Source of the DNA: PVC group bacterium
Lineage (GTDB): Bacteria; Auribacterota; Erginobacteria; Erginobacterales; Erginobacteraceae
Assembly: GCA_043804695.1 (NCBI GenBank)
Contig: JAZDIV010000143.1
Coordinates: 1 to 28,907 of the forward strand
DNA length: 28,907 bases
Direction of reading: 5' to 3'
Shown here: positions 3,451-15,235 of the stretch, one piece after another
How positions within the stretch are numbered: position 1 is the first letter of the stretch
How the letters are laid out: the number at the start of each line of letters is the position of its first letter
Notes under the pieces: model-generated
Seen by the model: only the letters and a program-made list of their open reading frames with translations
What the model was told of the DNA's origin: nothing
Database searches by the model: none
Made by a program: the position numbers and the translations under genes

Positions 3451-3490
3451 GTTCAACGTTCGAAGTTGGACGTTGAACGTTCGACGTTCA
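3451..3490. repeat. Heptamer tandem repeat (GTTCRAC/GTTGRAC)n
   Basis: gttcaac gttcgaa gttggac gttgaac gttcgac gttca. The same family occurs at 5499-5517, 5568-5579 and 15054-15093. Confidence 0.8.
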
Positions 3491-5386: not shown

Positions 5387-5591
5387 GATTCGCTTTTCAG
5401 ACGACGTTCAATTATCTCCCCCCAACCTCGCCCCCCGGTAAAAACAGACGATTGAATGTGATTGAATATGAAAGCTCCCTCCACCTCGCCCCCTTTTCGT
5501 TCGATGTTCGATGTTCAGTTTTTAACTTTAGGCACTTTACACTTTAGGCACTTCAGGCACTTCTGCTGTTGAACGTTCATTCTTTTATATG

Positions 5592-6376: not shown

Positions 6377-7207
6377 CTAATCCCAGACGCCCTCCAGATC
6401 CTTCAATTTGTCAAACGTCAGAACCGGACCGTCCTGACAGACAAAATACGGCCCCAGGCGGCAGTGGCCGCATTTCCCGATCCCGCAGCTCATGTTCTTT
6501 TCCATCGAGAGATAGATCGCCCCGGGAGGATATCCCACTTCCGCGGCCAGCTTGAAGGTGACGAACTTCATCATGATCGGCGGGCCGCAGACGACCGCCA
6601 CGCTCTCCTTGACGGTAACATCCAGGTTGTCCAGAGCAGTGGTCACCAGACCGACGTTCCCCTCCCACTGCTGTCCTTCCGGCACCTTATCCACCGTCAC
6701 CCGGATGGAGATATTTTTATGTAGGGACGGCCATTCACTGATGACCTTCTTTTTATAAATCAGGTCTTCCGGCGACCGTGCGCCGCAACAGAAGATGATT
6801 TTTTGATACGCGTCAACATCATGGGCCAGGGCGAGGAAGAGCGCCCGGAGGGGAGCCAGGCCGACCCCGCCGCCCACCAGGAGAATCTCTTTTCCCCGGT
6901 ACGTTTCCAGGGGATACTCTTTCCCGAACGGGCCCCTCAATCCCACCACCGCGCCCGGCCCCATCTCGTGAAGCCGGTCCGTCACCGCCCCTACCCGCAT
7001 GATGGTGACCTCCAGCTTCTCCTTCTCAAAGGGCGAGGAAGAAGGGGTGAAGGGGGCTTCCCCCAGCCCGGGGACGGTAATGCCGACAAACTGGCCCGCC
7101 CGGAAGGTGAACTCCTCCGCCGGTCGGAAAACAAAGGTCTTGATCGTCGGGGATTCGGTAATCACCTCCTCGATCTCGGCCGGTATCGGTTGATAGGGAT
7201 TCTTCAT
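6377..7207 (-). CDS. FAD/NAD(P)-binding oxidoreductase with [2Fe-2S] (AsrB / sulfhydrogenase gamma HydG-like)
   Basis: FRAGQFV, RGPFGK, GGGVGLAP, CGPPIMM and MSCGIGKCGHC...VC motifs. Confidence 0.9.
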   Translation of the reverse strand: MKNPYQPIPAEIEEVITESPTIKTFVFRPAEEFTFRAGQFVGITVPGLGEAPFTPSSSPFEKEKLEVTIMRVGAVTDRLHEMGPGAVVGLRGPFGKEYPLETYRGKEILLVGGGVGLAPLRALFLALAHDVDAYQKIIFCCGARSPEDLIYKKKVISEWPSLHKNISIRVTVDKVPEGQQWEGNVGLVTTALDNLDVTVKESVAVVCGPPIMMKFVTFKLAAEVGYPPGAIYLSMEKNMSCGIGKCGHCRLGPYFVCQDGPVLTFDKLKDLEGVWD

Positions 7208-7211
7208 AATT

Positions 7212-7242
7212 GTGAAAAGTGTAACGTGTAAAGTGTAAGGAT
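7212..7242. repeat. Left arm of a 31-bp inverted repeat built from GTGTAAN heptamers
   Basis: gtgaaaa gtgtaac gtgtaaa gtgtaag gat; its reverse complement matches 7645-7675 at 29/31 positions. Confidence 0.9.
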
Positions 7243-7243
7243 G

Positions 7244-7618
7244 TCAGACCTTCTTTATGAGTCCGACTATCATCTTTCCGAGGGCTACGCATTCGGCGCG
7301 CAATTCTTTCATCTTTTTATCGGTGATATTCTTGGTCTTATGAAGAACTGAAATCGAAGGGATACCTTCCCTGATCGAAGTTAATGAGTAGCCATAAAAG
7401 CGGCGTTTATCATCCTTACTCAATTTGCCGCTTCCTTCCGCTATATTATTAATAAAGGACATCGCGGCCCGGATGAAATTACCTCCTATGGTATAGCGCA
7501 GATAGGGCGGCAAATCCTTCACAACAGCGCAAACCGCACAAACAAACTCCAAGCCCTTTTGATAGACGTTCAATCTTTCAAAGTCAAAAATGTAATCCTC
7601 CTTCTCTTGTGCGCTCAT
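7244..7618 (-). CDS. Four-helix-bundle protein (23S rRNA IVS-protein / Avd-like family)
   Basis: FDFERLNVYQKG N-terminus, RAAMSFINNIAEGSGK...RFY core and GKMIVGLIK C-terminus. 124 aa, visibly more AT-rich than its neighbours. Confidence 0.88.
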   Translation of the reverse strand: MSAQEKEDYIFDFERLNVYQKGLEFVCAVCAVVKDLPPYLRYTIGGNFIRAAMSFINNIAEGSGKLSKDDKRRFYGYSLTSIREGIPSISVLHKTKNITDKKMKELRAECVALGKMIVGLIKKV

Positions 7619-7644
7619 TAAATCTTCAGCTGCTGTCCAAGCCG

Positions 7645-7675
7645 ATCCTTACACTTTACACATTACACTTTACAC
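7645..7675. repeat. Right arm of the 31-bp heptamer inverted repeat
   Basis: atcc ttacact ttacaca ttacact ttacac; it abuts the TGA stop (7676-7678) of the upstream gene. Confidence 0.9.
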
Positions 7676-8713
7676 TCAGGTCGATTTTATCCTTTTCAAA
7701 ATCGACCTGATATCAATCTTCCCCATGCAGGCCTCGAAACAGCGGCCGCAGCCCGTGCAGGCGATGACGCCGGCCACGTCGGGAAAGAACTGGAACTTCT
7801 TGGAGAAGCGATTGCTGAGACGTTGAGAACGGCGGGGCCGGGGGTTGGCGCCGCCCGCTACCCGGGGGAAGCCCGGGTACTGGCAGGAGTCCCAGTTCCG
7901 GTACTTGACCGACCCTCCGGCAGCGGCCACCTCCTCCAGAATAAAGCAGTGACAGGTGGGGCAGACCAGGTTGCAGGCCCCGCACTCGACACACGACGCC
8001 GCCTCTTCCCGCCAGAGCGGATCGGCACTCTTAGCTTTTACTTCCTCCGCGGAGGGAGCTTCCCCGATCTGCCCCTGTTCGGATAATTGTTTCCGCAACC
8101 CGGCGAGAACCTCCGACCTCCGTGTATCTCTCTCCCGGAGCTGCTCGGGCGACGGGGGGCTCAGCCTTTCCGCCTCTTCGGCGATCAAACGCTCGCCCCG
8201 TTCGCTCGCGGTCTCGAGCAGGAAGCCGTCTGCCAGCTCGCTGAGATTGAGGTCAAAATCTTCCCGCGGATAGGGCTCCCTCCCCACGATCGGGCAGAAG
8301 CAGACATCCTTGAATCTGGTACAGTCTCCGGAGACGAGGATCGTCTTCTCCGTCATCTCCATATAGAAGGGATCGGAACATTCTCCTTCCCGGAAGATGT
8401 AGTCGAGCACCGGGAGACAGGCCAGGTCACAGGCTTTCAGCCCCAGGACGATCCGCTCGCGGCCGGCCCCGAAATCATCAATCTTGGCGGGAAAACCGGC
8501 CACCGCCACCCGTTCCGGGAAGAGGAAGTTTTTCAGGGATTCCACCGCGCGGTAGGGGGAAACGGTGCTGATTTCATCACTGTCCCCGTTCCACCGGACA
8601 AACCGCCAGTCGCCGTTAATCTCCCGGGGGTAATAAAGATCGCGAGCCCGGGCCAGGCCGGAAAGAAAGCCGGCCAGAGCGTCCCGGGAAAGAAAATAGC
8701 ATTTCCGTTCCAT
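7676..8713 (-). CDS. 4Fe-4S dicluster protein, AsrA / sulfhydrogenase beta (HydB)-like
   Basis: GLKACD, C..CFC, CVECGACNLVCPTCHCF, RNWDSC and CTGCGRCFEACMGKID motifs. Confidence 0.88.
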   Translation of the reverse strand: MERKCYFLSRDALAGFLSGLARARDLYYPREINGDWRFVRWNGDSDEISTVSPYRAVESLKNFLFPERVAVAGFPAKIDDFGAGRERIVLGLKACDLACLPVLDYIFREGECSDPFYMEMTEKTILVSGDCTRFKDVCFCPIVGREPYPREDFDLNLSELADGFLLETASERGERLIAEEAERLSPPSPEQLRERDTRRSEVLAGLRKQLSEQGQIGEAPSAEEVKAKSADPLWREEAASCVECGACNLVCPTCHCFILEEVAAAGGSVKYRNWDSCQYPGFPRVAGGANPRPRRSQRLSNRFSKKFQFFPDVAGVIACTGCGRCFEACMGKIDIRSILKRIKST

Positions 8714-8724
8714 GACGGTGACTC

Positions 8725-9357
8725 TTACCCCTGCACCTTCAGGTTATACGCCAGGCCTTCCAGGCCGATGGCGAGATCGATATTCTCCACCTGGACGTCA
8801 TCCGGCACGACCAGCCCGACCGGAGCGAAGTTGAGGATCGCCTTGATCCCGGCCTTCACCAGCCGGTTCGCGACGTCCTGCCCGGCCTCGGCCGGCACCG
8901 CGATGATCCCGATCCGAACTTTCTTCTCCCGGACAACCTCCGGAAGAACGGACAGATCATTAATCCTCAACTCGGCCGGACCGACGCGGCGGCCGATGCC
9001 GGCCCGGTCGAAGACCGCGACGATCTGGAAGCCTCTTTTCTCGAATCCCTTATAGGCCAGCAGGGAGCGGCCAAGATTGCCGACCCCGATCAGGGCGACG
9101 TGATGGATTCGATCGGTTCCCAGAATCCGGATAATAGCCCTGATGAGTTCACCGATGCCGTATCCCCGGCCCTTGATGCCGAACTGGCCGAAACAAGCCA
9201 GATCCTTGCGCACCTGGTCGGGCTTCACGCCGACCAGGTAACCGATGGCAGCGGAAGAGACGGTCGCCACCTCCGCCGTTGAAAGGCCGTTAAGCGCCCG
9301 CAGATACAGGGAGAGGCGGCAGATGACAACCCGAGGTATTTTTCCGTTACTGATCAA
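8725..9357 (-). CDS. rex: Redox-sensing transcriptional repressor Rex
   Basis: RLSLYLRAL, VRKDLACFGQFGIKGRGY wHTH, Rossmann GVGNLG and ILNFAP motifs. The TTG start is approximate. Confidence 0.95.
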   Translation of the reverse strand: MISNGKIPRVVICRLSLYLRALNGLSTAEVATVSSAAIGYLVGVKPDQVRKDLACFGQFGIKGRGYGIGELIRAIIRILGTDRIHHVALIGVGNLGRSLLAYKGFEKRGFQIVAVFDRAGIGRRVGPAELRINDLSVLPEVVREKKVRIGIIAVPAEAGQDVANRLVKAGIKAILNFAPVGLVVPDDVQVENIDLAIGLEGLAYNLKVQG

Positions 9358-11559: not shown

Positions 11560-11678
11560 CGATCTGACTCGTTAAATCCCAAATCCCAAGCACCTCAGCC
11601 TACGGCTGAAAATCCCAAACAAATCACAAATAACAATTAATTAGCGCCTTCGGCGCAACTTCGTAGCGGCAGCCTTTA

Positions 11679-11845: not shown

Positions 11846-12112
11846 TTTAGGCTGCCATTTAGTGGCGACCTGAAGGTCACCGCTACGACATTTATTGAAA
11901 TTCCGAAGCAGTAAAATATAAACTATGGCCCAGTTCTGTTTGGGATTTTGAATTTCGGTCAGCCTCCTTCGCCATAGTAGCCTTTTGGCTACGGCGGCTG
12001 AATTGGTGCTTATTTGAGATTTGAAATTTGTTATTTGGAATTTCCTGCTCCCTGTTTTTTGCCTATCGACGCATGCCGTGAGAAGATATTCAAATGACAG
12101 CGATGATCGGAA

Positions 12113-14894: not shown

Positions 14895-15235
14895 TAACCG
14901 AAAAAAACGCAAAAATTTGCAAGAGTTTCCCCTGACCTCGTCCCCTTTGATTAGCCACCAAAAGGCGCAAAATACGCAAGAGTCCCCCTACCTCGGCCCC
15001 TCATTGAACCACGGAGAATACGGAGAAAGAAAATCAGTCCCGCGCCCCGGTGGCTTCGACGTTCGACGTTGAACGTTCGACGTTGAACGTTCAGTTTTTT
15101 CTTCCAACCTTGCCCCCTTTAATTAGCCGCAAAAAGCGTAAAATACGCAAAAGTTCCCCCACCCCAGCCCCCCACCATTCCACCACTCCATTACTCCATA
15201 TCTCTTTTCTTGGTGCCTTTGTGCCTTGGTGGCTA
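14895..15235. repeat. Mosaic array of short repeat modules
   Basis: Three GCAAAA..GCAA modules, an ACGGAGAA doublet, GTTCGAC heptamers, ACTCCA octamers and a GCCACCAAG element, separated by C-rich ACCTYG tails. Confidence 0.7.

Follow-up and report, generated by a model that had tools for sequence, protein, structure and literature searches.

The locus studied here raises the question of what a small four-helix-bundle protein gene, enclosed between facing arrays of heptamer repeats, is doing at the junction of two subunit genes of an operon. The window (the whole stretch of 28,907 nt that was analysed, contig C143) belongs to a metagenome-assembled genome (MAG) of a PVC group bacterium of the phylum Auribacterota (2.97 Mb in 155 contigs, 88% complete), here called G000; other G-numbers are genomes of the phylum, and L-numbers are loci fetched from relatives' genomes or metagenomes. 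The upstream gene of the pair (7676..8713, minus strand) encodes an asrA-like / sulfhydrogenase beta (ShyB)-like Fe-S subunit and the downstream gene (6377..7207, minus strand) an asrB-like / sulfhydrogenase gamma (ShyC)-like FAD/NAD(P) subunit. The explanation that we favour, and consider probable as a whole, is that the 464-bp insert at 7212-7675 is a resident, promoter-less cassette that carries one basic four-helix-bundle gene between facing heptamer arrays within a Rex-linked operon. The identity and history of the cassette we hold with high confidence; that its stem couples translation of asrB to that of asrA, by unmasking of the asrB start, is a tentative proposal to which we give somewhat less than even weight. 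Judged from its sequence, the cassette shares the anatomy of the intervening sequences (IVSs) of 23S rRNA that bear an open reading frame (ORF), but lies at an operon junction.

On the mRNA, the cassette begins with a 31-nt 5' arm (7645..7675, minus strand) that reads GTGTAAA GTGTAAT GTGTAAA GTGTAAG GAT, and whose first base follows directly on the asrA-like stop codon (TCA at 7676-7678 on the forward strand, with the arm running from 7675). A spacer (7619..7644) with a weak GAAGA ribosome-binding motif leads to the four-helix-bundle gene (7244..7618, 124 amino acids, pI 9.4), and the 3' arm, ATCCTTACACTTTACACGTTACACTTTTCAC (7212..7242), begins 1 nt past the stop of that gene; all three lie on the minus strand. 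Each arm consists of four GTGTAAA-type heptamers plus GAT, and the two are 94% complementary (29/31) across the 402 nt between them; by eye, the two unpaired positions on the mRNA are one U-G wobble and one U-U mismatch. The sole unpaired bases from the stem to the asrB-like ATG (7207-7205) are AATT (7208..7211, minus strand), and there is no purine-rich Shine-Dalgarno (SD) motif in the 17 nt that precede this start (CACTTTTCACAATT). The cassette has a GC content of 0.427, compared with 0.611 for the asrA-like and 0.591 for the asrB-like gene. When a 511-nt transcript was folded, the long-range stem was found in both the minimum free energy (MFE) and the centroid structure (-152.5 kcal/mol, z = -4.08, with 0/100 shuffles as stable). 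A preliminary description, made from the letters of the window, had placed an AT-rich gene between inverted arms at these positions (29/31, one wobble), with a stem that abuts the asrA-like TGA and stops 4 nt short of an SD-less ATG; coordinates, pairing, composition and predicted fold all bear this out.

All genes of the cluster are on the minus strand, so the cassette gene is co-oriented with both neighbours, and no promoter or terminator signal above chance was found at the cassette. For these reasons we infer that the cassette would be transcribed by read-through of the operon. Rfam contains no family that matches positions 6900-8000 of the window at E <= 1.

The encoded protein matches PF05635 with 70.8 bits (cut-off 33.8), over positions 1-105 of 106, and TIGR02436 with 73.6 bits (cut-off 24). 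It is a divergent member, in which the usual E..YG..SQ.RR stretch reads L.YTIGGNFIR. Its AlphaFold2 model (pLDDT 95.1, pTM 0.86) consists of four long helices and superposes on 2GSC (TM-score 0.83-0.94, or 0.83-0.86 when normalised to the query, TMq; rmsd 1.0-1.2 Å) and on 2RLD (TMq 0.72-0.78). The next best fold matches are to Avd, of diversity-generating retroelements (DGRs; 4DWL and the DGR ribonucleoprotein structures 8UBE and 8UB7), with TMq 0.72-0.74, TM-scores normalised to the target (TMt) of up to 0.85 and rmsd 1.9-2.4 Å; for chain 4DWL_D the values are TMq 0.74, TMt 0.85 and rmsd 1.9 Å, at 6% identity and E 0.09. A 25-sequence family profile run against the PDB at E <= 0.01 found only 2GSC and 2RLD and did not reach Avd. 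Homology between Avd and PF05635 is nevertheless stated in print (PMC10053308), and both the family assignment and the kinship to Avd in the preliminary description stand. All 25 aligned family members have a pI of 7.8-10.3. The crystal structures 2GSC and 2RLD contain five chains each, and a homopentamer is stated for the S23p family (PMC4990558).

The history of the insert can be read from the same junction in relatives. The asrA-like protein was searched in 79 phylum genomes, 31 of which match, and 19 relatives' loci have both genes of the close subfamily. At 12 of these 19 the junction is empty: no more than 43 nt separate the two genes, there is no repeat array, and at two loci (L025 and L026) the asrB start overlaps the asrA stop (ATGCCTGA), as in classical coupling. 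The pair is therefore normally adjacent, as had been supposed, and the expected empty junction exists. It is filled in G018, of the same genus (asrA 79%, four-helix-bundle protein 86% and asrB 91% identical), and in the metagenome contig L140, a third lineage (65%, 70% and 76%, in the same order). In G018 the layout is TGA|arm ... arm|TCTG ATG, while in L140 it is the second heptamer that supplies the asrA stop, and 3 nt (CGA) separate the 3' arm from the ATG. It can be seen that the foot of the stem either follows the asrA stop by 0 nt (G000, G018) or encloses it in the second heptamer (L140), and that in all three it ends 3-4 nt from an asrB ATG with no SD sequence. An SD-like AGGA (G018) or AGGG (L140) precedes the four-helix-bundle start. 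When sequence collections were scanned with the protein, the matches were L140, a further hit to the sister MAG (L141) and an incomplete one, at 40%, in a Bacteroidia MAG (L142). The arms are present in all three filled lineages.

A scar of the cassette is found in G014, where the asrA frame enters a 28-amino-acid, out-of-frame remnant of the C-terminal helix (LRADCVHMGKMVFGMIKKA vs LRAECVALGKMIVGLIKKV; hidden Markov model E 4e-4, 54 frames), followed by a (CACCTGA)x4 array that abuts the asrB ATG; nothing is left of the 5' arm and little of the gene. In G013, of the same genus as G014, the junction is empty. These comparisons show that the cassette entered a junction at which the genes of most relatives lie close together or overlap, and that it has been inherited vertically since before the three lineages split. 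Heptamer repeats seem to have landed, or to have been retained, at this junction more than once, and neither a target-site duplication nor a mobilising enzyme was identified in the comparison of filled and empty states. Of the mobile cassette proposed in the preliminary description, the existence of filled and empty states at one site has held up; the synonymous divergence given below shows an old vertical resident here and not a recent insertion.

Other inserts also occur between asrA and asrB. L015-L017 (family f17) carry non-coding inserts with CACGGAG arms and loops of 130-280 nt, L018 (G046) has arrays that include GTGTAAT units, and L014 has a 122-nt insert of another kind. A profile search of the L014-L018 inserts found no four-helix-bundle remnant (E > 1).

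Comparison of G000 with G018 gives dN/dS values of 0.115 (four-helix-bundle gene), 0.097 (asrB) and 0.181 (asrA). The four-helix-bundle gene is therefore under purifying selection, and dS is alike in all three genes (0.52-0.66), which fits vertical co-inheritance. By eye, the 5' arm is identical at 27/31 and the 3' arm at 25/31 positions. The 26-nt spacer before the four-helix-bundle start is identical at just 14/26 (also by eye) and so evolves at about the neutral rate (the proportion of synonymous differences, pS, is 0.37-0.44). The arms are more alike than either the spacer or the synonymous sites, indicating that they are constrained. Folding of the three orthologues (G000, G018 and L140) yields the stem each time, in the MFE as well as in the centroid structure.

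A second series of cassettes occupies the junction between moxR and a DUF58 gene. It comprises the cassette on contig C101 of G000 (C101:1-600) and those of G021, G024, G013 and G014 (L051, L053, L059 and L061), five genomes from two families in which MoxR is 81-93% and the DUF58 protein 70-86% identical. In 5/5, the moxR stop codon is followed immediately by the first base of the 5' array. The consensus units across the five genomes are TGGGGAA, TGGGGAA, TGGGGAC/TGGTGAC, TGGTGAA and TAGAGGA, and within each genome the 5' unit agrees with the reverse complement of the 3' unit at 6-7/7 positions. Unit changes are common to many repeats of both arrays. Since they are spread over both, complementarity has been kept through concerted turnover, whether selection or a copying mechanism is behind it. 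An SD motif is missing from all five DUF58 starts, and between the four-helix-bundle stop and the next start lie 2 to 94 nt. On C101, the reading frame of the four-helix-bundle gene continues across the 3' arm to a stop codon 2 nt from the following ATG, which amounts to direct serial coupling.

The link between gene and arms extends to the rest of the genome. G000 has eight PF05635 matches, and each of the six that are separate small genes (full-length and over the Pfam cut-off) lies between inverted arms. Five of these six sets are heptamer arrays, with the units GGGGAAT (C101), CAGTAAT (C27), GTGTAAA (the window), TAAATCC (C83) and AATGACG/AAATCCG (C120, where the four-helix-bundle gene is broken). 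The sixth (C121:4859-5429) has imperfect 24/28 repeat arms that are not clearly heptameric and may be an older or a different arm type; its neighbours, judged by the N-terminal sequence, are a putative membrane-fusion-protein-like and a putative RND-pump-like ORF. Weak PF05635 matches within longer ORFs on C11 and C33 were not counted as cassettes, as no arms were found there. After merging, Tandem Repeats Finder (TRF) reports 432 arrays of period 7 and a length of 20 nt or more in G000. There are 50 inverted pairs, and 5/5 pairs with a spacer of 360-475 nt enclose a PF05635 gene.

In the phylum, PF05635 is present in 53/79 genomes with up to 16 matches per genome, and 29/29 fetched loci have inverted arms, nearly all of period 7 and two with longer units. 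The 5' arm is G-rich (G > C) in 25/29. With orientation taken from a crude ORF caller, the upstream neighbour is co-oriented at 20/23 loci and both neighbours are at 15/22. The 5' arm starts within -19 to +10 nt of the upstream stop at 14/20 co-oriented loci by script, and at 17/20 after three mis-called loci had been read individually; the stop is often inside the first units of the 5' arm. The 3' arm, by contrast, ends 0-7 nt before the next start at just 5/19 loci. The preliminary description had called for a survey of the other four-helix-bundle genes for arms that abut stop and start codons: arms are indeed general, and a positional link is found at the upstream stop but mostly fails at the downstream start.

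Heptamer repeats are also abundant without the gene. A wider search gave 74 heptamer hairpins in G000, mostly with loops of less than 150 nt. The commonest units are AATCAGT (44), AAATCCT (30), AAAGTGT (20), AACGTTC (16), AATCGGT and AATATCG (15 each), AGCGCAT (12) and AATGACG (10), and among the approximately nine most frequent unit types, five are found on either side of a four-helix-bundle gene. For the GTGTAAA type, 28 arrays were counted at 19 loci. Gene-less GTGTAAA hairpins are found at C4:11364, C21:10842, C48:32905 and 41587, C61:12053, C72:2604, C87:24422, C134:343 and C155:13288, as modules of mosaic repeats that stand directly after a GC-rich hairpin (CAAGTTAGCGCC..GGCGCAACTTG) and before a ATTGAAATTCCGAAGCAG motif. 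The window cassette, too, follows a hairpin, the one at the end of the asrA-like gene. The hairpins of G000 show a polarity, in that facing arrays put the G/purine-rich strand first and have a C-rich 3' arm, on either strand; the opposite order is rare. We also considered whether stop codons are selected in the units, and rejected this: 217/345 arrays have a stop on the purine-rich strand (134 close all three frames), and letter-shuffled units give 204 +/- 8, so the stops reflect composition.

Could the cassette be cut from the operon mRNA by RNase III, as an rRNA IVS is, to leave TGA-AATT-ATG? The anatomy would fit. The IVS in helix 45 of Coxiella burnetii 23S rRNA has a 28-bp terminal stem, an S23p ORF and, before that ORF, heptameric GACAGAT repeats whose copy number varies among strains, and it is excised by RNase III (PMC4990558). 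With the 23S rRNA IVSs of Coxiella, Leptospira and Xanthomonas, the window cassette shares a PF05635 gene in the loop, a stem of ~28-31 bp, heptamers, a length of ~430-470 nt and the standing of a selfish element of unknown mobility, and for rRNA the link between heptamers and IVSs is already in print (PMC4990558). It differs from them in lying between protein genes and not in an rRNA helix, in having no Rfam match and in arms that abut stop and start codons. Its ORF, moreover, is under purifying selection, whereas reductive evolution and no expression are reported for the Coxiella IVS (PMC4990558). A further difference lies in the host. The RNase III Pfam domains PF14622 and PF00636 are found in 0/14 genomes of the order (families f1-f4), of which eight are at least 90% complete, whereas both models match 8/14 control genomes, and PF14622 is present in 53/79 phylum genomes. 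With no RNase III detected in the order, excision of the IVS type is unlikely, and the mRNA should retain its 31-bp stem; the hosts of both cassette series, at asrA-asrB and at moxR-DUF58, are ones in which a 30-bp stem, once transcribed, should escape cutting. We know of no bacterial mechanism that would re-join an mRNA into TGA-AATT-ATG, and Rfam gives no match, be it to a self-splicing intron or to another family. An rRNA from which RNase III has excised an IVS stays fragmented, without re-ligation (PMC4990558); in an mRNA, asrA would in this way be parted from asrB. We therefore regard excision, which the preliminary description had offered alongside folding, as very improbable and unsupported. 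The order is not alone in this respect: family f22 also nearly lacks RNase III (one weak match in nine genomes), while most other families of the phylum have one copy.

If the stem stays in the mRNA, it could act on translation. In the coupling of coat and replicase of phage MS2, the downstream start lies in a long-distance stem that is opened by ribosomes on the other strand, and in the ribosome shunt of the cauliflower mosaic virus (CaMV) 35S leader a large stem rises where a short ORF ends, and ribosomes resume on its far side. We propose that the uncut stem would mask the SD-less asrB-like start, and that a ribosome terminating at the asrA-like stop, whose footprint would cover the first 12-15 nt of the 5' arm, would melt the outer turn. 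Translation of asrB would in this way stay dependent on translation of asrA, as in the MS2 case. The likeness to MS2 and CaMV is purely geometric, and the window differs in that its 5' arm follows the stop and is not within the upstream ORF.

Several results weigh against this explanation, and some of them agree with a view in which the arms are DNA-level ends, forming a hairpin or cruciform that serves insertion, copying or repair, and do not act in translation; asrB would then start on an unstructured C/A/U-rich leader supplied by the 3' array, or be reached by ribosomes that have just left the four-helix-bundle ORF. The stop of that ORF is 36 nt ahead of the asrB-like ATG, which makes serial re-initiation an alternative, and in C101 the four-helix-bundle ORF reaches to 2 nt from the next start. 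G014 retains a full-length asrB 105 nt past the asrA stop, behind a bare 3' array and with no SD motif, indicating that the stem is not indispensable. At other cassettes the 3' arm lies 13-50 nt before the next start, which often has its own SD motif, and the tight geometry at asrB may just reflect a short original spacer. By eye, the changes in the G018 stem are mostly non-compensatory (five one-sided breaks and one double change that breaks a pair, against one that restores a pair, U-G to A-U). The outer third of that stem, which is the part that a terminating ribosome would melt, is degraded, leaving a 16-bp core, and the whole-transcript fold is weak in G018 (z = -1.56) and L140 (z = -1.45). 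The strand-specific check of the arms gave no support to the mRNA-level reading of the preliminary description, as G-U and A-C mismatches are about equally frequent on the transcribed strand (26 vs 27 among 47 co-directional hairpins, 18 vs 15 among 35 cassettes). Gene-less hairpins occur in all intergenic contexts and roughly follow the background, in which 63% of intergenic spaces are co-directional: 47 lie in co-directional spaces, 12 in convergent and 9 in divergent ones, with 3 more inside genes and 3 where a contig ends. The absence of RNase III, for its part, rests on two Pfam models, and another double-strand RNase is possible. A DNA-level reason for the complementarity of the arms fits as well, and the concerted changes over both arms would point to a copying process on DNA. 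Against a purely DNA-level role, no recombinase, Y1 transposase or reverse transcriptase lies beside any array (G000 has six Y1_Tnp genes and one reverse transcriptase gene), and the 2-94 nt between four-helix-bundle stop and next start in the moxR-DUF58 series argue against serial re-initiation as a general device. RNA structure at ribosome-binding sites affects initiation, and a transcribed 29/31-bp stem beside a start codon cannot be neutral for it. We consider the DNA-level view unlikely overall, but it is the one that we take most seriously beside our own.

A different possibility is that the protein has been domesticated as a sequence-specific binder of its own heptamer family, in DNA or RNA, and serves as a regulator or RNA chaperone on the ~19 GTGTAAA loci; the copy in the operon would be maintained for this role. 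Purifying selection on the ORF, the basic or near-neutral pI of all aligned members, the five-chain structures and the presence of the Avd fold relative in a ribonucleoprotein (8UBE series) would agree with this, as would the five major unit families with one four-helix-bundle gene each. Protein identity also correlates with unit similarity (rho -0.20, permutation p 0.012; 26/35 cassettes, nine having been dropped for poor periodicity or internal stops), but the correlation is weak and equally explained by joint inheritance of gene and arms. Arrays are denser in PF05635-rich genomes. In the first <= 20 kb of contigs 1-3 of 24 genomes, the 12 with at least eight matches have 69 arrays in 469 kb (14.7 per 100 kb) and the 12 without PF05635 have 34 in 556 kb (6.1 per 100 kb), with upper-middle values of 16.7 and 2.6 per 100 kb; the difference (Mann-Whitney p 0.034) is between related genomes that are not independent. 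However, the densest arrays of the 24 genomes, 23 in 45 kb (51 per 100 kb) with several unit types as inverted pairs, are those of G039 (L089-L091), a 94%-complete assembly with no PF05635 match even at E <= 1, and at least four abundant families of G000 (AACGTTC, AATATCG, AGCGCAT and AAATAAC/AAATCAC) have no gene in an 88%-complete assembly. A binding role of this kind seems to us improbable. More speculative still is the idea that PF05635 cassettes are the autonomous members of heptamer-hairpin families, the basic, ring-forming, Avd-fold protein acting in templated copying or repair of the arms while, in lineages without RNase III such as this order, the uncut stem doubles as a ribosome bridge that maintains coupling between the flanking genes. 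Templated copying from one unit would explain both the two-arm heptamer swaps in orthologues and the gene-less hairpins of the same unit elsewhere, and with a ribosome bridge the element could settle between co-translated subunit genes with hardly any burden. Lastly, the source is a metagenome-assembled genome in many contigs and is incomplete, and a chance inverted repeat or an assembly artefact might be suspected; but the armed cassette is present in two independent assemblies, every array pair of the relevant spacing holds a PF05635 gene and the fold has z = -4.08, so that we give this negligible weight. A search of public reads listed no RNA run with this stretch. Two low-share DNA runs, compared at 80% likeness, gave only short fragments of relatives over the flanking genes, with no contig spanning the cassette and no joints.

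The favoured reading, a resident cassette living on operon read-through, can be set beside other repeat systems. Avd and the window protein have the four-helix-bundle fold in common but differ at 6-7% identity; none of the eight PF05635 matches is on contig C23, which carries the single reverse transcriptase gene of G000, and template/variable repeats were not looked for. Paired hepta- and octanucleotide arrays in Geobacter metallireducens have been called 'putative global regulator binding sites' (PMC2700814), and Xanthomonas has inverted GGGAATC heptamer pairs (PMC4692102). These resemble the present repeats in that arrays of 7-9-nt units face each other on opposite strands, with variable spacing and many intergenic copies. 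The accessible text of the reports on paired or tandem heptamers makes no tie to the PF05635 family (PMC2700814, PMC4692102, PMC4679880), and in that of the Geobacter and Xanthomonas papers the terms 'helix bundle', '23S' and 'S23' do not occur, whereas here five unit families have a gene-bearing copy. REP/BIME and REPIN-RAYT systems are alike in having many short, intergenic, palindromic repeats and a single-copy gene bracketed by the repeat. Unlike REPIN-RAYT, the bracketed gene is not a Y1 transposase and the arms are tandem 7-nt arrays and not a fixed palindrome; the six Y1_Tnp genes of G000 all lack heptamer arrays or hairpins that would bracket them, the nearest hairpin being ~1 kb from the gene on C12. 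We found no description in the literature of PF05635 genes outside rRNA with heptamer arms, in a search that did not cover the supplements of PMC2700814 on genes beside the Geobacter repeats. New here are the allelic series at asrA-asrB, the co-variation of the arms at moxR-DUF58 and the missing RNase III in the order.

PF05635/TIGR02436 is a very large family without a known function, and the heptamer repeats of bacteria (Geobacter, Xanthomonas, Nostoc, Beggiatoa) are likewise unexplained. The asrA-asrB locus links the two in a testable form, as it offers three filled lineages and a natural arm-deletion variant; at a second junction the two arms co-vary, and a host order seemingly without RNase III separates the question of the stem from that of excision. 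Should the stem mediate coupling, the locus would be a chromosomal case of long-range start unmasking, which is known mainly from RNA phages; should it not, the cassette would still be a clear-cut instance of a selfish gene that subsists on read-through from an operon.

The cluster around the cassette is headed by a gene for the redox-sensing repressor Rex (8725..9357, minus strand; NF003993, E 4e-72, 242 bits against a cut-off of 217; Pfam Put_DNA-bind_N and CoA_binding). The asrA-like product matches Pfam Fer4_22 (E 2.5e-27) and NCBIfam ShyB (1.7e-42), HydB and AsrA; it is labelled '-like' because the last three matches are all under the equivalog cut-offs. The asrB-like product has the Pfam domains NAD_binding_1, DHODB_Fe-S_bind and FAD_binding_6 and matches NCBIfam PRK08345 (2.6e-62) and AsrB (1.2e-59), both under cut-off. 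Downstream of asrB-like come a gene for a 4Fe-4S protein and then NuoH- and NuoB-like genes.

An inverted repeat search also revealed a perfect 13-bp hairpin in the final asrA-like codons (7676..7710, minus strand). Its loop, GAAAAGGAU, contains AAGGA, and its 3' arm closes with the TGA stop and adjoins the heptamer arm. In G018 this hairpin, read by eye, has 12-13 bp with two compensatory changes (T-A to A-T and C-G to A-T) that alter two residues; it has 6 bp in L140 and 5/6 bp in G013, where the site is empty. Finally, TRF reports other period-7 arrays in the window, at 3451-3489, 5499-5516, 11574-11640, 12012-12043 and 15055-15092, with the units GTTCGAC, AAATCCC/AACAAAT, ATTTGAA and TTCGACG.

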